Below, in pieces: positions 1,845 through 15,870 of a stretch of DNA of 64,000 nucleotides. Within the stretch, counting starts at the first letter, position 1. Each line of letters starts with the position of its first letter. A program made the translations under genes and the position numbers. The notes under the pieces are model-generated. The model did not search any database, was not told the DNA's origin, and saw only the letters and a list, made by a program, of their open reading frames with translations. The DNA is from an uncultured Bacteroidales bacterium (GTDB lineage Bacteria; Bacteroidota; Bacteroidia; Bacteroidales; F082), in NCBI GenBank assembly GCA_947303055.1, contig CAMYXV010000001.1:3961-67960 (forward strand), written 5' to 3'.

Positions 1845-2096
1845 ATGGCTGTAGAACAGCTTTTAGATGAGTATAAGGAAAATGGATTTGAAATAAAATC
1901 CCAATATCCTATTATTGGCTCTCTAAGAGTGGATTTATTTGCGGTCAAAGGAGATGAAAGGATAGCTATTGAGTTTGTGGATAATCAAACTTCTGATGAT
2001 ACAGTATCACGATTGCAGCAAATCGCGCAGGAAGAGGATTTTGTCCTAAAACTTATAGACATTTCAGCTATACAATTAGAATACAAAAACTTATGA
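1845..2096 (+). CDS. small hypothetical protein (about 83 aa from the MAVEQLL start); possibly a nuclease-like fold
   Basis: Its stop overlaps the next start by ATGA at 2093-2096. The stretch SLRVDLFAVKGDERIAIEFVD loosely resembles a PD-(D/E)xK core, but the ExK element is not intact. The start could be the upstream ATG at 1803. Confidence 0.4.
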   Translation: MAVEQLLDEYKENGFEIKSQYPIIGSLRVDLFAVKGDERIAIEFVDNQTSDDTVSRLQQIAQEEDFVLKLIDISAIQLEYKNL

Positions 2097-3454
2097 CATA
2101 TTTAAAACGCATAAAAACAAGTAATTTTAAATGCTTCTCAGACGAAGTTGATATAGAACTTGGTAAGTTGACGTTACTTACTGGTGCTAATAGTACAGGT
2201 AAAAGTTCGTTGATGTACAGTGTGCTAGGTGCTTTGCAGTCACCGAGATTCCCATATGAGTATTCTGCCAATGGGCGATTTGTGAATATGGGCAGTTTCT
2301 CTGAGATGGTATTTAGACATGACAATTCCCTTCCAATTGGGGTTTCTTTTACTTTGGTCGATAACGGAGTCCCAATTGACATTGAAACGACGTGGGAGTA
2401 TAGAGAATACAACGATCAGCCTGTTCTAAAGAATTACAAGGCACATTCTGAAGACTTCAAAATTAGTATCAAACCCAAAGAGGATGGTAATGAAACAGAT
2501 TTTATACTTGATTTAGATTATGATCCTAGGAGTATTCTTAAAGTGCATGGTTTTGAACAGTTTATGTCGGGTCTTTTTCAGGTGTTTGATACAAACAATT
2601 TGACGAAGAAAGACAAAGACATTTCGAACAAAATCAGAGATGTGTACAAGAAACGCACTATTGTGAAGGACGTTCTTTTAGTAGCAAATGATAAGGGCTT
2701 GAATTGCCCTAATGATATTAGTGCTTCCGTAGCATTCGGAATAGTCGACGGCTTGATAAGAGATGCAATTAATCGTTATAAAAACAAAATGAACTTTATT
2801 AGTTCTTATCGTTTGGCAGCAGAACGCATTTATCTTGAAGAGAGTCTAACCGACGGGAAAATTCAGGCTTCGGGTAAAGGTTTTGTTAATCAAATGCTTT
2901 ATTGGCGAGAAAGCAATCGTAAAAACTATGAATCTCTAATTAATGCCATGAGGTTCATGAAAGTACTTTATGATATTGAGCCGGAAAGAATAGGTGGTGG
3001 GCAGTTTAAAATAGGTGTTACTATTCATAAAGATGGCCCCAAAGCTTCATTAAGCGATGTGGGTTTCGGCATTTCACAATTGCTACCTATTATTGTTGGT
3101 GATATTGAACTAGGTAATGAATCAACGCTCTTTTCAGCGCAGCCAGAGATACATCTTCATCCAAATGCTCAAGCAAATTATGCCGACTATCTTGTCAGTC
3201 AAATAGCTCAAAATAAAAACTATATAGTTGAAACACACAGCGAATATTTACTCAATCGTATTCGACTGGCTATAGTTAAAGGTCAATTGAATGAAGACGA
3301 TATTCGTGTTTATTATCTCTCTCAAGAACATGATACCACAAAATTGTATCCAATTGTTTTTACAAAAAGTGGGCAAATTAATGGTGCTCCTAGTGATTTT
3401 TTTGAGACATATATGATTGATGTGATGAATATAGCGATGGAAGCAGTGGGATGA
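2093..3454 (+). CDS. ABC/SMC-like AAA ATPase (AAA_21/DUF3696-like)
   Basis: Walker A GANSTGKSS near the N-terminus, FGISQLLPIIV, Walker B/D-loop QPEIHLHPNAQ, and H-loop ETHSEYLLNRIR. No transmembrane segments. Confidence 0.8.
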   Translation: MTYLKRIKTSNFKCFSDEVDIELGKLTLLTGANSTGKSSLMYSVLGALQSPRFPYEYSANGRFVNMGSFSEMVFRHDNSLPIGVSFTLVDNGVPIDIETTWEYREYNDQPVLKNYKAHSEDFKISIKPKEDGNETDFILDLDYDPRSILKVHGFEQFMSGLFQVFDTNNLTKKDKDISNKIRDVYKKRTIVKDVLLVANDKGLNCPNDISASVAFGIVDGLIRDAINRYKNKMNFISSYRLAAERIYLEESLTDGKIQASGKGFVNQMLYWRESNRKNYESLINAMRFMKVLYDIEPERIGGGQFKIGVTIHKDGPKASLSDVGFGISQLLPIIVGDIELGNESTLFSAQPEIHLHPNAQANYADYLVSQIAQNKNYIVETHSEYLLNRIRLAIVKGQLNEDDIRVYYLSQEHDTTKLYPIVFTKSGQINGAPSDFFETYMIDVMNIAMEAVG

Positions 3455-3930
3455 AACACGATATTTTTATTGATAACAATATTGCCTGTAAATTTTCTAA
3501 TCCGGCAGATCCAGAGTATAAGGAACTTATTCGTTGGTTGATGGATAATCACAAAATAGAGGATGGTAAAGATGATGATAGAGCATATTTAGTTGTATCT
3601 CAAAAGCTATTAGCGGAGTATTATCGTTCTTGTAGAGATGCTGTTGGCAAAACATCAATTCCAATGATTATAAATCAGTTAACAAAAGATGGGCGTCTTG
3701 CACGATTTTCTAATGAGGAAATCAAAGGATTCAAAAGTAAATATTTTACAAAAGCAATAGAAAAGAAACTAAGATCTAATAATGAAGATTGTGAGCATAT
3801 TCCTCCAGTTCTGATGTCCGATAGGAAATATGCACTGACTTACGATGATAACTTCACATATGACTTGGAACATTTTCCTGGTTTTACTGTTATTGTACAA
3901 AAACGTCCCGAGGATATACCATATCGTTAA
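3451..3930 (+). CDS. hypothetical partner protein (159 aa), possibly PIN-like
   Basis: ATGA start/stop overlap with the ATPase at 3451-3454. The N-terminal DIFIDNNIA resembles the first acidic strand of PIN domains. This is weak. Confidence 0.5.
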   Translation: MKHDIFIDNNIACKFSNPADPEYKELIRWLMDNHKIEDGKDDDRAYLVVSQKLLAEYYRSCRDAVGKTSIPMIINQLTKDGRLARFSNEEIKGFKSKYFTKAIEKKLRSNNEDCEHIPPVLMSDRKYALTYDDNFTYDLEHFPGFTVIVQKRPEDIPYR

Positions 3931-3986
3931 ATAGCGTCTGGAGATATGCATGAATAAATAAGTTGTATTATTAATGCAAATTATAA

Positions 3987-5336
3987 ATGTCCGTTATAGT
4001 AAATACGAAAATACAACCTTTGGTTGACGATTTGAGATGGGTATTGCCAGGTGAATTTTTGGCATCGACTGCATTCAAGCGGTGGATGGTGGAAAAGAAT
4101 CTGGACGAGGATTGGAAAGAGTTTGTTAGTATTGTTCGTCAAAACCGAAACGTTGTTGTATTAGGTTACGACCATGATGCTGGTGATGCAAGGGATGCAC
4201 TCGGATATTTGATAAATAGGATTTTTGAGCAACAAAAAACAAAGTTGCCTAAATTTGTGTATGAGTTGTTAGAGTTCTATTCGGAAGAAAAATCAGAGCA
4301 TGTTGATGCATCAAATATTAAAAAAGATTTGTATGCTGCAGGGTATTCGAAAAAAACGGTATCCAAGTTCGACAACTTTTCTGATTCAAAGCTAAAAGTA
4401 ATGAAAGAAACAGAGAATAATTCCCAGATGGTAAAACCAGTGACTAATAAGAAAAAGACACCAATGGTTTTTATCAGTCATTCTCATGGGGATGAAGATT
4501 TCGTTAAAGCTCTTGTCAATTTGCTGGAAGATATTGGCCTTGGCGCAAAAACAATGTTTTGTAGCTCTGTTAGAGAATATGGGATAAAACTTAGTGGCGA
4601 TATATTTGAAACAATACGCCAATTGTTTCATGAGCACGAACTGTATGTGATTTTTGTGCATTCACCGCGTTTCTATAACAGTGTGGTTTCATTGAACGAA
4701 ATGGGTGCTGCTTGGGTTTTAAGGACAGATTTTTGTTCTTTCTTAACAAATGATATGTCCTATGACCAAATGAACGGTGTTGTTAACAATGCGAAAATAT
4801 CTATTAAGGTTGATGACAAAGATGCCCCATCTTTGTTGAACGAATTGTATAAACAGCTAACACAACTCTTTGCACTTTCAGAAATGGATATGAACAAATG
4901 GGAACGCAAACGCGATCAGTTCATTACACTTGTACGAAATTTAAAGTATGATGAGGTTAAGAAAACCGTTGAAGAGAAAAATGTTGACATGGAGTATAAA
5001 AAGCTTCAAATAGCCAAGATGAAAGCTGAAGCCGAGGACCGTCATAAGGCTTATATCCGTGGCAATATTGTTAAAGATTATCAGGGTAAACGCACTTTAA
5101 AAATATTCAATGCAGGGCAAAGTACTGCGCGAAATGTCCTGGTAGAATGGCTTAATGAAAGTGATCGTGTCATTGTTAGAGGTGAATTTTATAATATTGG
5201 AGAGTTAACCCCTCAAAATGCGCGAAGCTATACTTTGTTGTTATCTATCGGGTGTCCGGATACAATGAATCTTCGATACACATGGGATGATGATTTCGCT
5301 GTTGGAAATAAACTTGAAGAAACATTGCAATTATAA
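3987..5336 (+). CDS. TIR-domain protein (449 aa) with unknown N- and C-terminal domains
   Basis: TIR core MVFISHSHGDEDFVKALVNLLEDIGL ... YVIFVHSPRFYNSVVSLNEMGAAWVL, with a candidate catalytic Glu in NEMG. A coiled-coil follows, then a roughly 90 aa C-terminal domain. Confidence 0.8.
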   Translation: MSVIVNTKIQPLVDDLRWVLPGEFLASTAFKRWMVEKNLDEDWKEFVSIVRQNRNVVVLGYDHDAGDARDALGYLINRIFEQQKTKLPKFVYELLEFYSEEKSEHVDASNIKKDLYAAGYSKKTVSKFDNFSDSKLKVMKETENNSQMVKPVTNKKKTPMVFISHSHGDEDFVKALVNLLEDIGLGAKTMFCSSVREYGIKLSGDIFETIRQLFHEHELYVIFVHSPRFYNSVVSLNEMGAAWVLRTDFCSFLTNDMSYDQMNGVVNNAKISIKVDDKDAPSLLNELYKQLTQLFALSEMDMNKWERKRDQFITLVRNLKYDEVKKTVEEKNVDMEYKKLQIAKMKAEAEDRHKAYIRGNIVKDYQGKRTLKIFNAGQSTARNVLVEWLNESDRVIVRGEFYNIGELTPQNARSYTLLLSIGCPDTMNLRYTWDDDFAVGNKLEETLQL

Positions 5337-5618: not shown

Positions 5619-5839
5619 AAATTAAAAAGTAACTGATGTTTGCCAAGCAAAGCATGCAAGAGCGATGAAAGTTTGAAGAAAAAAGATTACAAGGCTAGAC
5701 TGTCATATACTGTAATTGTGTGTCGATGACTTAAGGTCATATTCGTACCAAGTTCGAATCAAGTTAGAAGGATAGTGAAGGATATGGGACGAAGAAAAAG
5801 CGAAGAAATAAATATAAAAATTTAAAATATCTATAACAA

Positions 5840-6129
5840 ATGATCACCATCGGAATTATCGCCTGCGCCCCCGTGCCTGGAGCCCTCAAAGACTGGTTGG
5901 AACACAACAACCCTGAGTGCTAGCTTTTCATCTGTGATCCTCCTAAGGGATATAATGATGACCTGAGCAATGTGGATATTGCATGAAGACTGGCCATCAG
6001 GTGTGCTACATGCTCGAGTTCCTCACCGAGCGCACGCATATCGAGGACTTCAAGAAGCAGACCATGGTCTTCACGGGCGCGCACGAGCTGAATGTGCATT
6101 TCCGTGGGGTGGAGGAACATATATAAAAA
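5840..6129 (+). pseudogene. GC-rich decayed coding fragments of unknown family
   Basis: The ATG at 5840 opens a frame that hits an in-frame TAG at 5921-5923 and continues as LFICDPPKGYNDDLSNVDIA. A second short frame (MKTGHQVCYMLEFLTERTHIEDFKKQ...) follows after a frame change. There is no intact ORF on either strand. Confidence 0.3.
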
Positions 6130-6206: not shown

Positions 6207-6235
6207 TAAGCTTCTAAGCTACTAAGCGATTAAGC
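6207..6235. repeat. TAAGCnnn x4 array, strict 8-nt phase
   Basis: TAAGC occurs at 6207, 6215, 6223 and 6231. The array overlaps the stop of the minus-strand amidase gene. Confidence 0.8.
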
Positions 6236-6649
6236 GGGTTGCAAATCGCGATATTCGTTTGCAGCGTCGAAGCAGGGGCAGGCCTTCATGGGGTTGAAAA
6301 CGTTGTGGCCCATGATCAAGGCCTTGGGGAACTGAGCGTGAAGCTCTTCGAGTAGTTGGCGCATCGCAAGCTTTTGAGCCTCGGTGCGGGTGTCGGCAGG
6401 GCGACCTTCGGTGTCCAAGCCGCCTTCGTAGCAGATGCCAATGGAGTGGCGGTTGTGGTTTTGGCAATGGGCACCGATCATATCGTACGGGCGACCGTCT
6501 TCAATGGTGCCGTCGCGGCGAATCACCTTGTGGTAGCCGCAACCTTTCCAGCCGTGGGCACGATGCCAGCGGTCGATGTCCTCAACAGAGCTTTGCTGCC
6601 AAGGACGCACTGCGGAGCAGTGGATGATGATAAGTGTGATAACTCTCAT
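6230..6649 (-). CDS. N-acetylmuramoyl-L-alanine amidase (Amidase_2 / PGRP-like)
   Basis: IIHCSA, GYHKVIRRDGTIEDGRP, GAHCQNHNRHSIGICYEGG. This is the short amidase type common next to Bacteroidales polysaccharide loci. Confidence 0.85.
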   Translation of the reverse strand: MRVITLIIIHCSAVRPWQQSSVEDIDRWHRAHGWKGCGYHKVIRRDGTIEDGRPYDMIGAHCQNHNRHSIGICYEGGLDTEGRPADTRTEAQKLAMRQLLEELHAQFPKALIMGHNVFNPMKACPCFDAANEYRDLQPA

Positions 6650-6657
6650 AATGGTAA

Positions 6658-6686
6658 TTGATAATTGAAAGTTGAGAATTGATAAT
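6658..6686. repeat. TTGAnnn x4 array, 7-nt phase, immediately 5' of the amidase start codon
   Basis: TTGA occurs at 6658, 6665, 6672 and 6679 (TTGATAA TTGAAAG TTGAGAA TTGATAA). Confidence 0.75.
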
Positions 6687-6699
6687 TTGGTTAGAAGAA

Positions 6700-6771
6700 G
6701 TTCAAAGGTTCAAAAGGTTCAAGAGATAGAAGCTGCAACTTGAACATCTTAAATCCCTTAAACCCTTGAAC
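6700..6771. repeat. GTTCAA / CTTAAA / CTTGAA word array, 8-9 nt spacing
   Basis: GTTCAA at 6700, 6708 and 6717. CTTAAA at 6748 and 6757. CTTGAA at 6765. Confidence 0.6.
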
Positions 6772-6805
6772 TTTCACTGAGAGTCCGAATTAACGGTGAG
6801 GAGGA

Positions 6806-7003
6806 TTACATAGCCATGTAGGCTGCGGCGGCTACCGCGCCACTGGTTGTGGCTGCACCGGCCAAGAGGAGGCCAATCAAGTAGGCCAACACTTTGAGGA
6901 CGATGACCCACCAGGGGTCGTTAGCTTTGATACCGGCTTCTTGAGCCTTCTCAGGATTTGCCAGAATCTCTTCGATCTGGGCTTTTGTTAACTTGATTTT
7001 CAT
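6806..7003 (-). CDS. small membrane protein (65 aa), holin-like topology
   Basis: Start taken at MKIKLTKAQIEEIL (ATG at 7001-7003). There is a single hydrophobic helix, WWVIVLKVLAYLIGLLLAGAATT. The upstream extension to 7138 reads like non-coding AT-rich sequence. Confidence 0.5.
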   Translation of the reverse strand: MKIKLTKAQIEEILANPEKAQEAGIKANDPWWVIVLKVLAYLIGLLLAGAATTSGAVAAAAYMAM

Positions 7004-7044
7004 TGCTTTGAAGTTTTTAATGTTAATAATTCGAAAAAAAATAC

Positions 7045-7052
7045 TATCTTTG
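7045..7052 (+). promoter_or_regulatory. Bacteroidetes -7 promoter element (TAnnTTTG)
   Basis: TATCTTTG followed by CAAAAAAT, 19 nt upstream of the ATG at 7071. The same TTTGCAAAAAAT context occurs at 61842. Confidence 0.5.
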
Positions 7053-7070
7053 CAAAAAATTTGAATAGAC

Positions 7071-7340
7071 ATGTGTACAGTCCAGATAAAGATAGATGAT
7101 GCCAAGATGCGGCAGATCAACCCCAATCTCACCACCACCGAGAGTATTGGTGACTGGTTGCAGCGGGAGGTTGACGATTTACTCGACGATTATGTCAGCG
7201 ATCTGTCAATGCCCCCTTGCAGCCGCACCCGAGAGGAGATGATGGCCATCTGCGACCAGCGTATGGACGACATCCTCACAGGCCGTTCCACCACCATCCC
7301 TCACGATGAAGTGATGCGCCGCATGAATGAGAAATACTAA
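7071..7340 (+). CDS. hypothetical protein (89 aa), antitoxin-like small acidic protein
   Basis: Clean ORF behind the promoter motif. The C-terminal IPHDEVMRRMNEKY tail resembles antitoxin-type proteins, but no partner toxin is adjacent. Confidence 0.45.
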   Translation: MCTVQIKIDDAKMRQINPNLTTTESIGDWLQREVDDLLDDYVSDLSMPPCSRTREEMMAICDQRMDDILTGRSTTIPHDEVMRRMNEKY

Positions 7341-7426
7341 ACAACCGTCGCAACCCCGCTGCCTTGCGCCGTCTTTTGCTAGGGTTGAGATAGTCCAGAG
7401 CTCGGAGTCAGCTTCAAGTTGACCCT

Positions 7427-7491
7427 TAAACTTTAAACTTTGAACTTTGAACTGTCAACTGCTCTAAACTCTACACACTAAACTCTAAACT
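7427..7491. repeat. T(A/G/C)AAC word array, 7-nt phase, between convergent genes
   Basis: TAAAC at 7427 and 7434, TGAAC at 7441 and 7448, TCAAC at 7455, then TAAAC at 7465, 7479 and 7486. Confidence 0.7.
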
Positions 7492-7500
7492 GAGCGAAGC

Positions 7501-8409
7501 TTACTCAGTCTCCGGATTCTCGCCACCTTCGCCCTTCGTGAACACCTTGGTGGTCACCGAGCTCGAAACACCGTCCTTCACGGCGATGGCCTTCACAGTG
7601 GTAGTGTCAGTGATGGTCAGAGCCTCAGAGTAGGCGGTGCTTGCGGAGGTAGGAGTGGAACCGTCAACGGTGTAGTGGATCGAGGCTCCTGCGGTGGCGC
7701 AGCTGATGGTTGCCGAAGTGCTTTCAGCAAACGGAGTCGTACCGCTGATTACCGGAGCAGCCACAGCGGGCGTTTCGGAACCCGAGCCAGAACCCGAACC
7801 CGAGCCTGAGCCGCCACCCGAACCAGAGCTTGAACCACTTGAACCGCTTGAACCGCTTTCAACCACCACAGTCGAGCCATCCGGGTTGAATGTGGTAGTG
7901 GTGCCGTTCTCAGCCACAATGACCACGATGGTGCTGGCGCCCGCAGCGGCGCGCAGGGTGATGGTCGAGGGCCATTCGCCTTCCAGATACACCTCGCCGT
8001 AGCCCGCCAGGCGACCGATGGTGATGGCCTTGGGGTTGGCGGCGGCGTAGGCGCAGATGGCCTCTTCCACATCGTCGATGGTGACAATCTCGCCAGCCAC
8101 CATCACGTCGGCCAGCGTGTCGAGGGCGGCGCGGAGTGCCTTGCCGTTCACCGCATAGTAGCGGTTGGTGGCGTTGCCGTTGCCCTTGGGCGTGAAGGTC
8201 TGCTTGATGGTGCGCAGATGGTACTTCAGGTGCATCTGGATCATCTTGAAGATGGCCTGGCGCTTCAGCGCGGCAGGGGTGGTGTAAGCCTTCGCAGGCA
8301 TGATGGGGTTAGAACGGACAAAAGTCTTGCCGTTGCGTACCACGTAAGTGATACCGTCGATGGTGCCAGCCGTCTTACGACCAGGACCGATCTGTTTAAT
8401 AGTTGCCAT
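7501..8409 (-). CDS. secreted/surface-type protein with a Ser/Gly linker and a C-terminal Fn3-associated (CHB_HEX_C-like) domain
   Basis: Low-complexity SGSSGSSGSSSGSGGGSGSGSGSGSGS linker. The C-terminal IHYTVDGSTPTSASTAYSEALTITDTTTVKAIAVKDG is typical of chitobiase/hexosaminidase C-terminal-like modules. Confidence 0.6.
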   Translation of the reverse strand: MATIKQIGPGRKTAGTIDGITYVVRNGKTFVRSNPIMPAKAYTTPAALKRQAIFKMIQMHLKYHLRTIKQTFTPKGNGNATNRYYAVNGKALRAALDTLADVMVAGEIVTIDDVEEAICAYAAANPKAITIGRLAGYGEVYLEGEWPSTITLRAAAGASTIVVIVAENGTTTTFNPDGSTVVVESGSSGSSGSSSGSGGGSGSGSGSGSGSETPAVAAPVISGTTPFAESTSATISCATAGASIHYTVDGSTPTSASTAYSEALTITDTTTVKAIAVKDGVSSSVTTKVFTKGEGGENPETE

Positions 8410-8425
8410 GATTTTTTAATTTAAA

Positions 8426-8460
8426 TTGATAGTTGATAATTGAAAATTGATAATTGAAGA
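8426..8460. repeat. TTGAnnn x5 array, 7-nt phase, immediately 5' of the 7501-8409 start codon
   Basis: TTGA at 8426, 8433, 8440, 8447 and 8454. Confidence 0.75.
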
Positions 8461-8653: not shown

Positions 8654-9181
8654 ATGGACATCAACATTCAGGGCAACCCAGGTACGGGCAATACCTTCCA
8701 GGAGATAAAAATCGGGCATGTGGAGAACTATGTTCCCAATGCCACGCAGGTGGTGAACAACTACTATGGCAATCAAGGCAAGCCTAAAGGCGAAGGTCCG
8801 GCCATCGACAAATCCGTTATCCGTAAGGCTATTCTCGAAGATGCAAGCAAGTTGCTCGATATGGTTTATAAGCCGAAGCAAGCCATCTGGATGAGCCTCT
8901 GGAACGATATTATCGACCTCCCTGCGGTGAAGATTGATATCTTCATACCAGGCAAGCAGAACGACAAACTCTATAAGCGAATCCTGTTTGCCGCTATCGT
9001 TCACTACCTTGGCAGCGACGAGAACAACTGCCTGGGCTGGTTCAGCCACTACAACGCCTCCGACATCGCTGAAACCCTCGTGGGTTCATCCTTGAAGTCT
9101 ATGCGTGGCGAACTCGGAGCACAGCCCTCCGACGAAGTCCAAACCGCCATCAACAACCTCATCAACGAGAAATACTCTTGA
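8654..9181 (+). CDS. hypothetical protein (175 aa)
   Basis: Clean GC-rich ORF. The N-terminal peptide is Gly/Asn-rich (MDINIQGNPGTGNTFQEIKIGHVENYV). Confidence 0.6.
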   Translation: MDINIQGNPGTGNTFQEIKIGHVENYVPNATQVVNNYYGNQGKPKGEGPAIDKSVIRKAILEDASKLLDMVYKPKQAIWMSLWNDIIDLPAVKIDIFIPGKQNDKLYKRILFAAIVHYLGSDENNCLGWFSHYNASDIAETLVGSSLKSMRGELGAQPSDEVQTAINNLINEKYS

Positions 9182-9214: not shown

Positions 9215-9242
9215 TAACCTTTAACCTTTAACCTTTAACCGT
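9215..9242. repeat. TAACCTT x4 tandem repeat (7 nt)
   Basis: TAACC at 9215, 9222, 9229 and 9236, between the stop at 9181 and the start at 9249. Confidence 0.85.
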
Positions 9243-9248
9243 TATTTA

Positions 9249-10499
9249 ATGACCGCTTCCGACCTATATCGCAAACTCTACTATTGCGGCTACACCGACA
9301 TCGAGGCCTATCTGCATGACAACCCCGTTAACCGCTACATCTACAAGCAGTTGATCGAACTGAGGCAGAACGGCACGGTGAAGACGCCCACACTGACCCT
9401 CTTCAACGAGGTGTACTATCAGTGCGTGAAGGTGCAGACCGACCGCCTGCCGGGCGAGGAGGTGCAGCGCCGCTATCTGCGCGATACCGAGGATTGGCTT
9501 GGCTCATGCAATTCCGCCCTGCTGGTGATGAGCATCGTGTGGGCACTCATGAAACGCAAGTTCAAACCCTCCTTCAGCGACGAGTGCTTTGTTGAGCAGA
9601 TGACCCCGGTCGTGAAGAATGGCGACTATTCCATCCTGGCCGCAAAACTGGTTCAGTTCATGACCTCCGAAAGCATCTACACGCCCTACGAGTTCAAGAC
9701 CATGCCCAGCCCGGTCAACACCCTCCCAATAGGCAATTCTTACGAAGGTGATGAGATGTGGCGTACGGTCACTGAACATTTCACCCCCTCCGTGGTTGAG
9801 GGTCTGCTGACGCTCTATACCAACCGTGCCGAGCAAGGCGACCTGCTCAACTGCATTGTGGGTGGTATGTCGTACGAGGAAAAACGCGACAACACCGAGC
9901 TGGTGCGCCGACTGAGGGAGAACATCGAGAAGGGCGACTACCTGCCCCATGGCAACTATTTTGACAATCAGGATGACGACCCTGATACCGACTACGACTT
10001 CATGTTTGCCGCCAACCTCAAACAGACCATGGAGGAGGCCTACGACGACCGTGCCGAGCAATACAAGCAGGAGCGCGACACCTATAAATATCGTTTGGAG
10101 GAGCAAAAGAAAGCCCATGCCGCCGAGATTGCCCGCTTGGAGGCCAACTATCAGGCCGAGATTGCCCGCCTGAAAACCCTGCTGGAGCAACAGCCCCAGC
10201 CCGTAGCCCCGGCACCGGAAGCCGCAACCCCAACCGCCGCCGCCGAACCCGCCTTCACCCTCACCGAGATGGTGGCACTCGTGAAGGAGCGTTTCAGCAA
10301 GCCGGGTGCCGACGAGGTGAGTGCCATGTTCTACAGCCTTGCCGCCGAACACCAATACCTTAGCGGCGATGTACTCAAGCTTATCAACGGCATCGTTCCT
10401 GCCGTCTTGCAGCGCGACAGCCGCAACCAATATTTCGAGCTGCCCAACGTACAGCAGTTCAACAACAACCCCGGGAACGTAAACAACAACCCCCAATGA
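9249..10499 (+). CDS. hypothetical protein (416 aa) with an internal coiled-coil/Pro-Ala linker
   Basis: Repeated AEIARLEANYQAEIARLKT, then QPQPVAPAPEAATPTAAAEP. The stop overlaps the next start by ATGA at 10496-10499. Confidence 0.65.
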   Translation: MTASDLYRKLYYCGYTDIEAYLHDNPVNRYIYKQLIELRQNGTVKTPTLTLFNEVYYQCVKVQTDRLPGEEVQRRYLRDTEDWLGSCNSALLVMSIVWALMKRKFKPSFSDECFVEQMTPVVKNGDYSILAAKLVQFMTSESIYTPYEFKTMPSPVNTLPIGNSYEGDEMWRTVTEHFTPSVVEGLLTLYTNRAEQGDLLNCIVGGMSYEEKRDNTELVRRLRENIEKGDYLPHGNYFDNQDDDPDTDYDFMFAANLKQTMEEAYDDRAEQYKQERDTYKYRLEEQKKAHAAEIARLEANYQAEIARLKTLLEQQPQPVAPAPEAATPTAAAEPAFTLTEMVALVKERFSKPGADEVSAMFYSLAAEHQYLSGDVLKLINGIVPAVLQRDSRNQYFELPNVQQFNNNPGNVNNNPQ

Positions 10500-13400
10500 C
10501 CAAGACCAGTCCTCAAAACAGCAAACGGAACTTTCAGCTTCGGCAAAAGTATCTGCACATCTTCTTCAGCTATACCAAGCGTTCGAGCGCCCTCCATAGC
10601 CTGAAGAGCATTGTGGATATCGAGTCGTTGCGCGAGGTGCAGAAAAGCATCGGCACCTTTGTGCCCACGCTGAAGGCTGAGATTGAGGGCTGCCTCTTCC
10701 CAGCCGACTTCAAGGAGCTTTGCTCCACGCTGGTGTCGTTTGTGCGACCCTTCTCCCTGCAGTCCGAGCTGATATGGCTCAGCAGCTATCTGATCGACTA
10801 TCAGCAGGAGCTGCACTGGTTCTTGGAAAAGAAAGAGCGTTTCGAGCAGAAGTTCCTCTTGGGCGAGTTTGCCGATTGCTACGACATTTTAGAGGAGGTG
10901 AAAGGCAAAATCGGCGTGTCGCTCTGGTACTACGAGTCCATGTTCCTGCTCTACGAGTATTGGGACAAGCGCAAGGAGGGCGACCTGCTGATGTCGGCCT
11001 GCCTCGAACAGACCAAAGATGCCGACACCAACCACCTTCAGTCGCTCGTATATATGCTTCATCTCAGAAGCACCACCAACATTTCGCCCTACAAGTTCGA
11101 CGACGACCTCGACTCGCTCTACAAGCAGAACAAGACCCTGCTGCATGAGGATTACTACCGCTACGTGCTCTTCCGCCTCAACATGTTCAACAACCTCCGT
11201 CAGGAGGAACTGTCGTTCAACATGATGTTCGAGTCGCTGTCGGCCTTGGTCGATCGCTATCTGATGGCGGTGAATGTCATCAAGGCATCGGCTGTGAATG
11301 AGAAGCTTGACGATGAGCTGATTGCCCGTGCCAGGTATCTCTACTCAAAAACCGACGACAAGGAGTTGCTGCCCCTGCTGGCCAAGGATTCCAAACGCAT
11401 GAAGGCATCCTACTACAACGCCTCCTTCATCGGCATTCTCGACAGCTTCTATGGCGGCGACTACCAGCGCACGGTGCAGCTGTGCCGCGAGTATGTCAAG
11501 GGCGATGCCAGCCTGTTTGATGTGCTGGTCGTCTATTGCCGTTCGCTGGTCTATCTCGGTCAGAGCTATGAGGGCATCTACCCCTTGCCCAATGCCCCTG
11601 TCAACAAGTTGTGCAGCAGAATCTACAGCGTGCTCACCGAAAAAGACAACCACGAGACCGTCTATTCGCTCTACCAGATGAACAAGAACCTCTATGGGTT
11701 CCATCTGGCGGCCTCGATGCACGTGTTCGTGATGAAGGAGCTGAACGAGCCGGTTGAAGACCGCTACCGTGTCTATTGGACCAGCTGTTTCGACCCCGAC
11801 TTTGCCACCTCGGCCTACTCCGACCCCAACGCAGCCGTTGAATACCTGAATTCCTATCCCGACTGCCATGCGTCGCTGGTTTGCAAGGCTACGCTGGCCA
11901 GGATTGAGGGCAGCGAGCTTCAGTCTGGCACAATATCCAACAATGTGGTGACACCTCACAACGCCACCGTTAAGATGGCCAACGAGGACTATGCGGCGGC
12001 CTACCAGCTGTGGAGCGATTTCTACGACGCTTCTGAGGCGTGGCTGCCCAACCGCCAGAAAGCGGTGAGGAACATGGTGAGCTGTCTCCACAAGTCGGGC
12101 CAGACCGGGCAGGCCATCACGCTCTATGTCGATTGCTTGCTCAACGATCAGGCCGCCACCCTCAAGGTTGACACCGATGCCATCATCAAGAGCCTTCAGG
12201 ACAATCTCTATGAAGGCATCCGCCGCAATATCGACCTTGCCATCTTCATGGGTCTCAACTGCAAGGATGGCGTTGACAAGAGCTTCATTCTCCTGGAGTA
12301 TTGCGAAACCAAGGAGGTCACACTGCCTTCCGAGCTGATAGGCAAGCTTGACGAGCCTCTCGACCGGCAGGAGGTGTTCTTCGCCATCTTGGACGACGAC
12401 GAAACCCTGCGGCACTATTTCAATATTCCCAGCCTCAAGGAACGCCTGAACGAGCGACTGAAAATCATCAACTATCTCGTCAAACTCGACACCCCCAACA
12501 AGGAGGTTTATCAGCAACGGCAGAAAGAGGTGGAGGATGCCCTGCTGGTCTATCGCGTGTCAAAAAACCTCAACGAGGGCAAGATTTACGCCAACGACCA
12601 AGCCATCCTGAAATACAAGCTCACCGAGATTGACGGCCTTTTCAAACGCTTCATGCGTCTGTTCGATATGATTGTCAACGAGCACAGCCGCATCTATGTC
12701 ATCGATTTCAAACATTCCACAGTGCTCTACACCCAGGACGGCTACGATGGCGAAAAGGTGAAGTCGAAGACCAGCATCAGCGAAAACGGCATCTACGAGG
12801 TGTTCTATTCGCTCTACGACTATGTGCTCGACAAGTTCCTCTACAGCGAGTTCGGTCTGGTGGCCTACCTGAGCACCCGTGTGCGTCACGGCGAACTGGA
12901 GAGCAAGCTGCGCCCCGAGCTGGCACAGCGCAACCTCATCCTCTCCATGAAGGACAACACCTATCAGGATACCTCCTATTGGCGTGAGCAATACAACCTG
13001 TCGCCAGCCGAGAACACCACCGTCAACACCGCCCTCGCCAAGTTCTCGCGCGACTTCGATGCCGAGGTCATCGACCTCATCAAGGAACGCCTGCAAATCT
13101 ACGACCGCGAGAAGAAGCCCAAAGGCCTCTTCAACTACACCATCGACGAGAACGAGCTGGCCCACAAGACCATGGAGATTGGCATTTTGACCAAGGATGC
13201 GGGGGGAAGCCGCGAGGAGTTCTGCCGGCTGGTGATCAAGTGGCTCTGGCAGAAGACCGAAGTCTGCCTGACAGAAATCAGACATTACATCGCCGGTGAG
13301 TTCACCGAGAAGATCAATGGACTGTTCGAGACCCTGAAGGCCGACCTCAGCACCGAGGCACTCCCCGTGGGACACGCCTACTCTTTCCTTCAGGCCACCA

Positions 13401-13987
13401 TTGCCGAGGCCTCATCGGTCATCGCCAGCCGCCTGAAGACCATCGAGTGCTGGTTCAACATCACCGGCACCAAGCTCGACGATGTTGACATCAAGCAGCT
13501 CACCTATCAGGTATGCAACAACACCCGCACCACCTACAACCAAATCAAGGTGGCGGGCAAGCCCCGCATCGATGGCGAGTCGTTCAAAATCAAGTCGTCC
13601 TACGTGCTGCACTATGCCGACATGCTGAGCAATCTGGTGGCCAATATGATCAAGCATGGCGTCGCCGACGAGACGGGCACCAAAGCCATCACACTCAACT
13701 TTGCCATTTCCGACAAAATGGTGGCCATGCATTTCGAGAACAAGGTGGAGACGGGGCAGGAGGAACACCTGAACCAGATCTTCACCGAGAAGCTCTCCAG
13801 CAAAGCCTCGTTCTTCAACGCCGAAGGCGGCAGCGGCATCGCCAAGGTCAACAAGATTCTGCGTGCCGACTTCCAGAACAGCGACAACGAGTTGAAGATA
13901 TGGGCTGAGAATGGCACTTGTGTGACCGAAGTGAAACTCTTTACCGAAAATCTTAGAAGCAATGTGCAAGAAAGTGCTTGTGATTGA
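10496..13987 (+). CDS. dtcA: soluble giant sensor histidine kinase (DtcA-like): long helical/TPR-like N-terminus + GHKL ATPase
   Basis: Candidate H-box STRVRHGELESKL, N-box LSNLVANMIKHG and G-box AEGGSGIAKVNKIL at the C-terminus. The roughly 900 aa N-terminal region has no transmembrane helices. Confidence 0.75.
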   Translation: MTKTSPQNSKRNFQLRQKYLHIFFSYTKRSSALHSLKSIVDIESLREVQKSIGTFVPTLKAEIEGCLFPADFKELCSTLVSFVRPFSLQSELIWLSSYLIDYQQELHWFLEKKERFEQKFLLGEFADCYDILEEVKGKIGVSLWYYESMFLLYEYWDKRKEGDLLMSACLEQTKDADTNHLQSLVYMLHLRSTTNISPYKFDDDLDSLYKQNKTLLHEDYYRYVLFRLNMFNNLRQEELSFNMMFESLSALVDRYLMAVNVIKASAVNEKLDDELIARARYLYSKTDDKELLPLLAKDSKRMKASYYNASFIGILDSFYGGDYQRTVQLCREYVKGDASLFDVLVVYCRSLVYLGQSYEGIYPLPNAPVNKLCSRIYSVLTEKDNHETVYSLYQMNKNLYGFHLAASMHVFVMKELNEPVEDRYRVYWTSCFDPDFATSAYSDPNAAVEYLNSYPDCHASLVCKATLARIEGSELQSGTISNNVVTPHNATVKMANEDYAAAYQLWSDFYDASEAWLPNRQKAVRNMVSCLHKSGQTGQAITLYVDCLLNDQAATLKVDTDAIIKSLQDNLYEGIRRNIDLAIFMGLNCKDGVDKSFILLEYCETKEVTLPSELIGKLDEPLDRQEVFFAILDDDETLRHYFNIPSLKERLNERLKIINYLVKLDTPNKEVYQQRQKEVEDALLVYRVSKNLNEGKIYANDQAILKYKLTEIDGLFKRFMRLFDMIVNEHSRIYVIDFKHSTVLYTQDGYDGEKVKSKTSISENGIYEVFYSLYDYVLDKFLYSEFGLVAYLSTRVRHGELESKLRPELAQRNLILSMKDNTYQDTSYWREQYNLSPAENTTVNTALAKFSRDFDAEVIDLIKERLQIYDREKKPKGLFNYTIDENELAHKTMEIGILTKDAGGSREEFCRLVIKWLWQKTEVCLTEIRHYIAGEFTEKINGLFETLKADLSTEALPVGHAYSFLQATIAEASSVIASRLKTIECWFNITGTKLDDVDIKQLTYQVCNNTRTTYNQIKVAGKPRIDGESFKIKSSYVLHYADMLSNLVANMIKHGVADETGTKAITLNFAISDKMVAMHFENKVETGQEEHLNQIFTEKLSSKASFFNAEGGSGIAKVNKILRADFQNSDNELKIWAENGTCVTEVKLFTENLRSNVQESACD

Positions 13988-14411
13988 GGACAACGAGGCG
14001 AAACTGAACAAACTCAGGCAGTTTTGCGCCGACTATTGGCCCGGCTATCAGGTGGAGTGCCGCAGCTCTTACAACACCGCGCTGAGCGAGGTGGTGCATC
14101 GGGGCAAGTTCTACGACATCATCCTGCTCGATGTCAGCATGAACACCTACGAGGTGAACGGCGATGCCTCCGACGGCGAGCAGGAGCCGCTGGCAGGAGC
14201 CAATATACTGCGCTTCATGAAGCTGCGCAAAATCAATGTGCCGGTCATCGTGGTCACCATGTACGAGAGCTTTGTGGACGGCATCCGCATCGACAGGCTC
14301 GATGAGGGCTTCCGCGCCAAATACCCCGAGTTCTACAAAGGCTATGTCTATTATAACCTGAAAAACGAGGATTGGATCAACAAACTTAACGAATTAATGG
14401 CAGGGATATGA
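13962..14411 (+). CDS. dtcB: stand-alone receiver (REC) domain protein (DtcB-like)
   Basis: VLVIEDNE, phospho-acceptor context IILLDVSM, and VIVVTMYE. There is no output domain. The start lies 26 nt inside the kinase ORF. Confidence 0.8.
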   Translation: MCKKVLVIEDNEAKLNKLRQFCADYWPGYQVECRSSYNTALSEVVHRGKFYDIILLDVSMNTYEVNGDASDGEQEPLAGANILRFMKLRKINVPVIVVTMYESFVDGIRIDRLDEGFRAKYPEFYKGYVYYNLKNEDWINKLNELMAGI

Positions 14412-15649
14412 TTAGGGTATTGATTATGGACGACACCCCCGAAAAAACCAGCAAGATAAAATCGGTGCTGATGGGGAAGTGCATGCTGCACGAGAGCGAA
14501 ATCACCGTGGCCAAGTCAATCAACAGCGGACGGCGTATGCTTTCGGCTGAAAGCTACGACCTGCTTATCCTCGACCTGGTGATGCCTGTCAACGACGGCG
14601 AGGAGGTGGGTGCCGAGGGGCAGAGCGAAGGCTTCATTGATGAGCTTTCGCGCGTGGGCCGTCTGAACAAGCCTATCTATATCATTGCTCTTACGCAATA
14701 CAAGGAGAAGATTGAGGAGAACCGCCAGACCTACGCCAAAAAGCTGTGGAAGCTGATACATTACGACCTGAAGCAGACCGAGTGGGAAGATGTGTTGCAG
14801 GATGCGGTGGATACCATCATCGAGACCAAGCGGAAACTCTTGGAGCATATCGCGAAGGAGAACCGCTTCGATGTGGGGTTGCTCTGCGCCCTTCCCGAGG
14901 AGTTTGAGATGATGAAGGCTGCCACCTCGCCCAATTGGGTGGTGAAGGAGGACGACCATTCGCCCTTCAACCTCTACACCCTTCAGGTGCGTACCGAAAA
15001 CGGCCATTCGCTCCGTTTGCTGGCCTGCTGTTGCAATGCGCCCGGAATGCAGGCTGCGTCGGTGGCGGCATCCTATATGTTGAGCCGATATGGCCTCGCG
15101 ATACTGTTTATGACGGGTTTCTGTGCAGGCTTCAAAAAAGACGGAGTGAACCGTGGCGACCTGTTTGTTGCCGACTCCGAATACGACTATGGCAGCGGCA
15201 AACTGGCACGCAACGCCAACAACGACCAGGTGCTCAACACCGAGCAGAAGCAGTATCCATGTTCATTTGAATTATTGGGCAAGCTTAATGCCTTCATTGC
15301 TGCGCAGAATATGCCCGACAAGTTGCGCACCGAGCTCGAAAGGGTGGGTTATCTGCAAGAGGAGATGGGCCAGCCCGCCATCCATGTGGCTCCTGGCACC
15401 TGTGGCTCGTATGTGGTGGGCGACGAAGCCTTTATGAATAAGCTGCGTAAGGAAGGCAACCGCAAGCTTACAGGGCTTGACATGGAAGGCTATGGCCTGT
15501 ATCTGGCCGGTCACATGCTGAAGAAAGACTGTGTGCTGGTGAAAGGCATCGCCGACTATGGCGACGGTGTGAAAGACGACAAGTATCACCGCACCTGCTC
15601 CTACGCCAGTGCCTGGTTTGTGATGCGATTTATCAAGGTGATGCTGTAA
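14408..15649 (+). CDS. dtcC: response regulator with a PNP_UDP_1-type nucleoside phosphorylase/nucleosidase effector domain (DtcC-like)
   Basis: REC motifs VLIMDD, LLILDLVMP and IIALTQY. The C-terminal half carries FDVGLLCALPEEFEMM, LTGLDMEGYGLYLAG and VKGIADYGD. ATGA overlap with the previous gene. Confidence 0.85.
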   Translation: MIRVLIMDDTPEKTSKIKSVLMGKCMLHESEITVAKSINSGRRMLSAESYDLLILDLVMPVNDGEEVGAEGQSEGFIDELSRVGRLNKPIYIIALTQYKEKIEENRQTYAKKLWKLIHYDLKQTEWEDVLQDAVDTIIETKRKLLEHIAKENRFDVGLLCALPEEFEMMKAATSPNWVVKEDDHSPFNLYTLQVRTENGHSLRLLACCCNAPGMQAASVAASYMLSRYGLAILFMTGFCAGFKKDGVNRGDLFVADSEYDYGSGKLARNANNDQVLNTEQKQYPCSFELLGKLNAFIAAQNMPDKLRTELERVGYLQEEMGQPAIHVAPGTCGSYVVGDEAFMNKLRKEGNRKLTGLDMEGYGLYLAGHMLKKDCVLVKGIADYGDGVKDDKYHRTCSYASAWFVMRFIKVML

Positions 15650-15655
15650 AACCAT

Positions 15656-15710
15656 TAAGCAACTAAGCAATTAAGCAAATCTATAAACTATAAACCATAC
15701 ACTATAAACT
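15656..15710. repeat. TAAGCnnn x3 (8-nt phase) followed by TATAAAC-type 7-nt words
   Basis: TAAGC at 15656, 15664 and 15672. TATAAAC at 15683, 15690 and 15704. The array starts 7 nt after the dtcC-like stop. Confidence 0.8.
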
Positions 15711-15806
15711 TTAAAAGCATAGCGTGCCATTGATCTTACGCGCAGTCAGTGCCGCACAAGGGGCTGAAAGGTCTTCCGCACAGCCTGGAAGCCCCCAATA
15801 TAATGA

Positions 15807-15861
15807 GGCAGTGCAATCCCGCAAGTCTCTCAAATATGGTTCAATTCCCTGCGGGACTGCC
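15807..15861 (+). promoter_or_regulatory. imperfect hairpin just upstream of the first polysaccharide-locus gene
   Basis: GGCAGT(15807-12)/ACTGCC(15856-61) and CCCGCA(15818-23)/TGCGGG(15850-55) give 12 bp, with a 5-nt bulge and a 26-nt loop. It lies 10 nt before the ATG at 15871. Confidence 0.35.
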
Positions 15862-15870
15862 TTATATTAA

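Follow-up and report, generated by a model that had tools for sequence, protein, structure and literature searches.

A predicted PNP-type Detocs operon beside a conserved gene pair at the head of a Bacteroidales capsule locus

Genes and layout of the operon

We analysed a 64,000-nucleotide stretch of DNA (hereafter, the window) from an uncultured Bacteroidales bacterium of the F082 lineage (assembly GCA_947303055.1, contig CAMYXV010000001.1, positions 3,961 to 67,960 of the forward strand). Three overlapping genes at 10496-15649 of the window, dtcA, dtcB and dtcC, very probably form an intact PNP-type Detocs (defensive two-component) system, as judged from their sequences. Detocs was published in 2023; it is a large family that had been recorded in Bacteroidia before, and the locus is a further member of it, not a new system. 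The genes and their domains are as follows (positions in the window, strand, description, and in brackets the basis).

10496..13987, + strand: dtcA (ORF1), soluble sensor histidine kinase of 1163 amino acids, Pfam PF27260 'Y4jQ' (PADLOC PDC-M60A)
10496..12565, + strand: dtcA sensor region, residues 1-690, predicted helical/TPR-like repeats (AlphaFold2 model, profile match to TPR, hhalign)
12866..12892, + strand: dtcA H-box YLSTRVRHG, residues 791-799, with the predicted phospho-acceptor H798 at codon 12887-12889 (conservation)
13490..13942, + strand: dtcA GHKL catalytic ATP-binding domain, residues 999-1149, with N-box N1050 and G-box E1110/G1114/K1117 (profiles, model)
13962..14411, + strand: dtcB (ORF2), stand-alone receiver domain of 149 amino acids (PDC-M60B; Pfam Response_reg)
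14408..15649, + strand: dtcC (ORF3), receiver plus PNP_UDP_1 effector, 413 amino acids (PDC-M60C; PNP_UDP_1)
14408..14827, + strand: dtcC receiver domain, residues 1-140, with the predicted phospho-acceptor D56 at codon 14573-14575 (alignment with D58 of V. alginolyticus DtcC)
14867..15649, + strand: dtcC PNP_UDP_1 nucleosidase domain, residues 154-413, with the predicted catalytic D383 at codon 15554-15556 (Pfam, PADLOC, V. alginolyticus DtcC)

A first-pass annotation, made by a model from the letters and a list of open reading frames (ORFs), had described three co-directional, overlapping frames here, the second beginning 26 nucleotides within the first and the third joined to the second by an ATGA at 14408-14411. 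We found them exactly so, at 10496-13987, 13962-14411 and 14408-15649, and observed a second ATGA overlap, at 10496-10499, which couples dtcA to an upstream ORF of 416 amino acids. The motifs that had been quoted for the three proteins were all located at the expected positions: STRVRHGELESKL at residues 793-805, LSNLVANMIKHG at 1044-1055 and AEGGSGIAKVNKIL at 1109-1122 of ORF1; VLVIEDNE at 5-12, IILLDVSM at 53-60 and VIVVTMYE at 95-102 of ORF2; and the receiver motifs of ORF3 at 4-9, 52-60 and 92-98, with its PNP motifs at 154-169, 354-368 and 378-386. The lack of a transmembrane segment noted for ORF1 held as well (top Kyte-Doolittle 19-residue mean, only 1.21), and no transmembrane-like segment was seen in ORF2 or ORF3 (maxima of 1.15 and 1.35, respectively). 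Public assemblies hold exact and near-exact copies of the operon genes, and the ratio of nonsynonymous to synonymous substitution rates (dN/dS) against a 79-90% identical copy, locus L012 of our comparison set, was low (ORF1: 0.19; ORF2: 0.17; ORF3: 0.12), indicating that the ORFs are real, maintained genes. Sigma-70-like sites numbered 13 against 8.6 ± 3.0 expected, without clear enrichment; the exact motif TAnnTTTG was absent 5' of the 175-amino-acid gene described below and within the operon, and no terminator was found 3' of dtcC.

Assignment to Detocs and the DtcA kinase

ORF1, ORF2 and ORF3 matched the PADLOC models PDC-M60A, PDC-M60B and PDC-M60C, respectively, over essentially their full length (E = 8.7e-48, 4.5e-29 and 1.3e-64). 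These models served as a proxy for the three hidden Markov model profiles of the Detocs authors (MacSyFinder/DefenseFinder), and we scanned the reference Detocs proteins of Table S1 (doi 10.1101/2023.01.24.525353) against the same PADLOC library. DtcC of Vibrio alginolyticus (VaDtcC) matched PDC-M60C with E = 1.4e-64 and 216.5 bits, where ORF3 scored 216.6 bits; PDC-M60B was matched by VaDtcB and by DtcB of Enterobacter cloacae (EclDtcB); and the N-terminus of EclDtcA matched PDLC04723, which is the best PDC-M60A sub-model for ORF1. Since validated Detocs proteins match the PDC-M60 models with similar scores, we take PDC-M60 to be Detocs. The DtcA/DtcB/DtcC layout proposed in the first-pass annotation is therefore borne out by the profiles, all three of which were matched; the alignments with VaDtcC and EclDtcB and the hhalign comparisons of the kinase core and sensor agree with it.

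The gene order, the domain architecture and the homology of all three proteins are those of Detocs. Detocs loci have been defined by adjacent, co-directional dtcA, dtcB and dtcC genes interrupted by no more than one foreign gene (doi 10.1101/2023.01.24.525353), and in the window this order is present with overlaps of 26 and 4 nucleotides. DtcA has been described as cytoplasmic, with N-terminal TPR-type repeats and a C-terminal histidine kinase (doi 10.1101/2023.01.24.525353); ORF1 combines the lack of a transmembrane segment with a TPR profile match, a modelled GHKL domain, histidine-kinase fold matches and hhalign matches to both DtcA types. DtcC has been described as a receiver fused to a cell-killing effector, which is PNP in about 80% of systems (doi 10.1101/2023.01.24.525353).

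That ORF2 is a bare receiver was supported by a Response_reg match above the Pfam cut-off together with the PDC-M60B match. It aligned with EclDtcB over the full length (32% identity; E = 1e-21) and weakly with VaDtcB (E = 7e-4). In 83 DtcB sequences five residues never vary (D10, K14, D57, G79 and W138) and T99 is kept in 98%; D57 (codon 14130-14132) aligns with D53 of VaDtcB and D54 of EclDtcB. The reading of ORF3 as a receiver joined to a PNP_UDP_1-type fold stood equally: PNP_UDP_1 scored above its cut-off (E = 4.6e-13), Pfam Response_reg was sub-threshold (26.2 bits vs. a cut-off of 30.2), and the PADLOC 'PN-superfamily' effector model matched with E = 8.8e-20. ORF3 aligned with VaDtcC end to end (27% identity; E = 8e-34), placing D56 on D58 and D383 on D353; all of 49 homologues, like VaDtcC, have D9, D51, D56, E165, M359-E360, K379 and D383. 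In the Vibrio system, VaDtcA H645A and VaDtcC D58A each abolish defence, mutation of the DtcB receiver Asp leads to toxicity, and D353 of VaDtcC is the catalytic Asp of the PNP domain and is needed for defence (doi 10.1101/2023.01.24.525353). By alignment, the residues mutated in that work are all conserved in the window proteins.

The first-pass annotation had seen about 900 helical residues at the N-terminus of ORF1. In our AlphaFold2 model (mean predicted local distance difference test [pLDDT] 86.4; predicted template modelling score 0.71) the helical character stood, whereas the single unit did not: a repeat sensor of about 690 residues is followed by a phosphotransfer region of about 300 residues with a conserved His. 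The model runs from helical repeats, which end at about residue 690, through a small beta insert, the helical region with H798 and four long helices to the GHKL domain at 999-1149. A profile search of the PDB returned consensus TPR proteins at about residues 481-545 (E = 5e-6), and the catalytic and ATP-binding (CA) domain of VanS (E = 1.5e-4) and HK853 (E = 4.5e-3) at about residues 980-1110. When the model was searched with Foldseek, histidine kinases led the matches (a bacteriophytochrome histidine kinase, ZraS, CpxA and HK853). The candidate phospho-acceptor box of the first-pass annotation also gained support, since YLSTR[VI]RHG is nearly unchanged and H798 invariant in 49 homologues with identity down to 17%, and in the model this His lies within the helical region 5' of the GHKL domain. 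The GHKL ATPase itself is modelled as an alpha/beta domain, in which N1050 (N-box), N1082 and E1110, G1114 and K1117 (G-box) are invariant in the same homologues. The PF27260 annotation is carried by all homologues. By motif only, the RxRHG of the H-box recalls the RHG signature of histidine phosphatases.

We connected H798 with the Vibrio kinase through Klebsiella pasteurii (Kp), a plasmid of which carries a Vibrio-type Detocs; its DtcC and VaDtcC share 63% identity, and the N-terminus of its DtcA is 43.5% identical to that of VaDtcA. Kp DtcA (983 residues) has one RHG motif, with the His at 646 and no second His nearby, and this residue corresponds to VaDtcA H645. Aligned by hhalign, the window DtcA family matched Kp DtcA with 98.6% probability (E = 1.2e-15; 451 columns), and the H-box, an LQI..KKP.GL motif, the N-box and the G-box were all aligned, H798 falling on H646. 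The sensor region of the window protein (residues 1-617) gave no alignment with the Vibrio-type sensor, and was collinear with the N-terminus of E. cloacae DtcA (hhalign 96.3%; E = 1.9e-9). A protein search with the VaDtcA N-terminus returned fragments only, an E. cloacae dtcA DNA fragment had no match in E. coli genomes, and no PDB structure of any Detocs component was detectable by sequence.

The family is widespread. A search with the DtcA H-box motif found 160 species-representative genomes, mostly of Bacteroidota, including Parabacteroides gordonii MS-1, Bacteroides gallinarum DSM 18171, Flavobacterium rivuli and Hoylesella shahii DSM 15611, and these four are listed as Detocs carriers in Table S4 (doi 10.1101/2023.01.24.525353). 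Quantification of synteny in the 71 species-representative loci with enough downstream sequence revealed DtcB in 68 and a receiver-bearing third gene in 69, the effector of which was PNP in 45/69 and another domain in 24/69. This swapping matches the effector modularity described for Detocs (doi 10.1101/2023.01.24.525353). A receiver-bearing third gene without PNP was also seen in L006, L007 and L083 (in L006, a 369-residue protein). Among 1.84 billion representative proteins searched by profile, 3,336 clusters reached E ≤ 1e-3 and 2,080 reached E ≤ 1e-30, and the nearest relatives of the kinase (62-64% identity) are encoded by metagenome-assembled genomes of Prevotellaceae and Paludibacteraceae.

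Compared with known systems, the locus resembles the Detocs of V. alginolyticus UCD-32C in its A-B-C order, overlapping genes, receiver-PNP effector with both Asp residues kept, and a kinase core with the RxRHG His motif and the N- and G-boxes. It differs in its Bacteroidales rather than Vibrio host, in the low identity of DtcC and the weak VaDtcB match given above, in about 620 residues of sensor that cannot be aligned, and in a kinase about 180 residues longer than the Vibrio-type Kp DtcA (1163 vs. 983). With the Detocs-hydrolase system of E. cloacae JD6301 it has in common the collinear DtcA sensor, PDLC04723 and the more similar DtcB; the effector of that system, however, is a transmembrane alpha/beta-hydrolase, whereas a soluble PNP nucleosidase is predicted here. 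Loci in P. gordonii MS-1, B. gallinarum DSM 18171 and H. shahii DSM 15611 have the same A-B-C(PNP) arrangement, with DtcA 29-44% identical, but lack a 416-residue gene adjoining dtcA and lie in other genomic contexts. Cap17, an ATP nucleosidase associated with CBASS (cyclic oligonucleotide-based antiphage signalling), has the PNP_UDP_1 effector fold in common with DtcC, but a TPALS domain, by which a cyclic-nucleotide signal activates it, takes the place of the phospho-receiver of DtcC. Canonical HisKA/HATPase_c systems also use receiver-only phosphate sinks, of the CheY type, in chemotaxis. The window locus is like them in its GHKL domain, its His-to-Asp logic and a competing receiver-only protein, and unlike them in having no HisKA domain, no membrane anchor and a predicted killing or arresting enzyme, instead of a transcription factor, as output.

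Upstream gene pair and genomic neighbourhood

Two genes directly 5' of dtcA encode proteins of 175 and 416 residues that had no match in Pfam, PADLOC or NCBIfam and nothing significant in PHROGs. We refer to them as the orphan pair.

8654..9181, + strand: 175-residue orphan, first gene of a two-gene anchor module (31% identical homologue in the same position in L001)
9249..10499, + strand: 416-residue orphan, ATGA-joined to dtcA (DNA homology with L012 and L013; dN/dS 0.20)
9215..15650: putative exchanged cassette, 416-residue gene plus dtcABC (blastn against L012 and L013)

The 416-residue protein had no match among PDB profiles, and its best values against PDB folds (E = 0.57) and BFVD (E = 0.07) were likewise poor; the family was not found in IMG/VR viral contigs. 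Its model is confident (pLDDT 83.7) and all-alpha, with a long central helix. The layout of the pair was seen in 12 metagenome loci, and across L008-L013 and L095-L126 the two proteins measure about 180-200 and about 415-485 residues. In capsule loci of Bacteroidales the pair forms a conserved module behind a divergently oriented gene, which in all related loci encodes an equivalent amidase or a Peptidase_M15_3 peptidase. What follows the module varies from locus to locus:

L008/L009, L111 and L118: capsule genes directly
L010: PARIS (AriA/AriB), with Detocs about 4 kb further
L103: a type IIG Eco57I/MmeI-like enzyme
L104, L107, L114 and L116: unannotated proteins
Window, L001, L012 and L015: Detocs

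The window Detocs is part of a defence island: genes for an NsnB-like AAA_15/DUF3696 ATPase (E = 1.3e-52) and a SpbK-like TIR protein (E = 5.5e-52) lie about 5 kb 5' of it. On the other side, 3' of dtcC, a long co-directional polysaccharide-biosynthesis locus begins, with a TupA-like ATP-grasp gene first. Homologous Detocs loci adjoin AbiEi/AbiEii, a gene with a Piwi domain (like prokaryotic Argonautes), an Eco57I-type methylase/restriction-modification enzyme, a KAP NTPase, a caspase-like AbiJ, and PARIS. The neighbouring modules of the window are:

2093-5336, + strand: second candidate defence system, comprising a 453-residue ATPase, a 159-residue ORF without match and a 449-residue TIR protein (PADLOC NsnB/SpbK)
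6230-8409, - strand: divergent module of an Amidase_2 gene, a 110-residue ORF and a gene for a 302-residue protein (phrog_822, 5.5e-58, for Amidase_2)

The 453-residue ATPase also matched HEC-03B and PDC-M55A. Within the divergent module, the amidase is phage-endolysin-like, the 110-residue ORF (6806-7138) has a hydrophobic C-terminus, and the 302-residue protein combines an Fn3_assoc/CHB_HEX_C_1 domain with a linker rich in Gly and Ser. At 7044-7051 (+ strand), about 20 nucleotides 5' of an 89-residue ORF (7071-7340, + strand), is an exact -7 motif of the Bacteroidetes type, TATCTTTG. This ORF has no family match and overlaps the 5' end of the opposite-strand 110-residue ORF; either of the two is a candidate gene. 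AT-rich, heptamer-like repeats, TTGATAATTGAAAATTGATAATT, occupy both intergenic flanks of the divergent module (6649-6687 and 8403-8455) and were promoter-like in the sigma-70 scan. Akin to these are AT-rich, low-complexity runs directly 3' of the dtcC stop codon (15650-15715), which are followed at 15715-15870 by a GC-rich intergenic segment with a T-arm-like element, GGTTCAATTCC, between complementary CCCGCA and TGCGGG. ARAGORN and Rfam gave no match at this site, the fold was only marginally better than that of shuffled sequence (z = -1.77), and the motif was missing from 126 related loci. In L008 a UDP-glucose/GDP-mannose dehydrogenase gene lies 3' of the 416-family gene; non-coding DNA at 5810-6090 of the window matches a portion of it with 80-85% identity, and looks like what rearrangement left of a capsule gene on the opposite side of the module.

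Base composition is strongly mosaic across the window: GC content is 33-37% in the TIR/NsnB genes and in the capsule genes (15.9-26 kb), 50-60% in the module and Detocs, and 49-51% in the genes at 27-47 kb. We rejected the GC island around Detocs as a strong sign of recent foreign origin, since dtcABC (53-54%) is near the 49-51% of the 27-47 kb genes; the island is sharp mainly because its TIR/NsnB and capsule neighbours are AT-rich.

Proposed mechanism, alternative readings and implications

By analogy with V. alginolyticus, cytoplasmic DtcA would detect a cue of phage infection with its helical/TPR sensor of about 690 residues, and its GHKL domain would phosphorylate H798 (autophosphorylation). 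The phosphoryl group would then move to D56 of the DtcC receiver, ATP and dATP would be cleaved to adenine as described for Detocs (doi 10.1101/2023.01.24.525353), the energy of the cell would be exhausted, and the infection would be aborted. Receiver-only DtcB, through D57, would compete for phosphoryl groups from a leaky kinase and so prevent autoimmunity, a buffer role that is itself only a hypothesis in the Detocs paper (doi 10.1101/2023.01.24.525353). That DtcB acts as a phosphate sink and DtcC as an ATP nucleosidase is inferred from the Vibrio system, and the trigger, phosphotransfer, substrate and phenotype of the window Detocs would follow the same analogy. Of the abortive-infection system of the Detocs family that the first-pass annotation had called, the family membership thus stands by homology, and abortive infection would be carried over from Vibrio.

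Several observations weigh against the Detocs assignment. Identity to the validated proteins is low (27-32%), and no promoter was identified 5' of the operon. Pfam HATPase_c and HATPase_c_5 reached ORF1 with E of about 2e-3, below cut-off, and HisKA did not match; H798, in the monomer model, lies at a break between helices 788-797 and 800-811 and 252 residues before the N-box, where canonical HisKA kinases have the H-box, on the dimerization and histidine phosphotransfer domain, immediately 5' of HATPase_c. In Foldseek, PDK-type Ser kinases scored about equal to histidine kinases, and the equivalence of H798 to VaDtcA H645 is transitive, through Kp H646. Given the lack of a HisKA match and the distance of the His from the N-box, we place DtcA outside the HisKA family, in PF27260. 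We predict that it works like a histidine kinase, and in the model its phosphotransfer geometry appears non-canonical. One could go further and propose a Detocs-like architecture with other chemistry, in which DtcA is a PDK/BCK-like Ser/Thr kinase or a scaffold and H798 is structural or otherwise catalytic; besides the missing HisKA match, this would fit the PDK2/PDK4 matches (E = 2e-4), near those of bona fide histidine kinases, the placement of H798 distant from the CA domain, and an RHG motif unlike canonical H-boxes. We consider it very unlikely: the top Foldseek match of DtcA is a histidine kinase, both receivers keep the full acidic pocket with the phospho-acceptor Asp, and in Vibrio the loss of defence in H645A and D58A and the toxicity of the DtcB Asp mutant (doi 10.1101/2023.01.24.525353) fit His-to-Asp phosphotransfer. 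Lower still do we rate a housekeeping or regulatory two-component system whose receiver-PNP protein is a phosphorylation-controlled nucleoside-salvage enzyme or methylthioadenosine/S-adenosylhomocysteine (MTA/SAH) nucleosidase, which seems hardly credible. The PNP_UDP_1 fold is common to MTAN, DeoD and Udp, and ORF3 has weak NCBIfam matches to MTA/SAH nucleosidase and futalosine hydrolase; yet such housekeeping matches are far under the curated cut-offs (28.7 vs. 169 bits for MTA/SAH nucleosidase), and the best matches of ORF3 are the defence profiles and VaDtcC. Synteny with nucleoside-salvage genes, which the first-pass annotation had named as a sign against its reading, was not seen, the neighbours being defence and capsule genes instead. 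The non-PNP effectors in 24 of 69 homologous loci also speak against housekeeping, as such swapping is typical of immune effectors, and the distribution of the locus is patchy and cassette-like.

A further alternative accepts Detocs and enlarges it to five genes, with the 175- and 416-residue proteins as integral parts (for example adapting the sensor or regulating DtcA). In its favour, the 416-residue gene is co-directional with dtcA and overlaps it by ATGA, is under purifying selection (dN/dS 0.20), and adjoins dtcA also in L001/L002 and L015. In blastn the window is 83.6% identical to L012 and L013 from 34 nucleotides before the 416-residue start to exactly the dtcC stop, and in L012 this four-gene unit is preceded by a resident 454-residue paralogue of the 416-residue protein; the gene was co-transferred with dtcABC in L012/L013, where a resident copy is present as well. 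However, the orphan pair also occurs without Detocs, with capsule genes next (L008/L009, L111, L118), it heads other cassettes (PARIS in L010, the type IIG restriction-modification enzyme in L103), and a 416-family gene abuts dtcA in none of the 71 species-representative Detocs loci. In addition, the identities of the 416-residue protein and DtcA are uncoupled (84%/79% vs. L012, 33%/63% vs. L001), indicating recombination at their junction, and both validated Detocs operate as three genes (doi 10.1101/2023.01.24.525353). We therefore regard the five-gene system as improbable; a partnership of the 416-residue protein with Detocs is possible, and less supported than its role as a flank. The cassette is bounded by neither direct nor inverted repeats, and we found no tRNA or tmRNA gene, Rfam element or recombinase around it, leaving site-specific integration unsupported; exchange by homology across the flanking gene is the likelier route. 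The observations are explained most simply if the module borders a variable slot where homologous recombination swaps defence cassettes; the 416-family gene would be the left flank, sometimes transferred together with a cassette.

It is conceivable, if rather doubtful, that the orphan pair marks an undescribed hotspot of defence cassettes at the head of Prevotellaceae/Bacteroidales capsule loci, with the 416-residue protein either a partner of Detocs, perhaps tying its expression or its kinase activity to transcription of the capsule operon, or a recombination handle by which cassettes pass from strain to strain. For the Detocs family itself the locus adds little, the family having thousands of members and its occurrence in Bacteroidia being on record. 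Its additions are modest: a non-canonical placement of the predicted phospho-His, an E. cloacae-type sensor with a Vibrio-type effector, and a cassette or hotspot context with the 416-residue orphan. As a clean, intact PNP-type Detocs it is an experimental candidate from a gut/rumen Bacteroidales lineage, and its pairing of sensor and effector lends itself to the question of what the sensor recognises. Capsule type in Bacteroides is reported to affect phage susceptibility. If the slot proves to be a hotspot for defence in general, searches for new systems in Prevotellaceae could usefully start there, and a link between the expression of capsule and that of defence would be hinted at.

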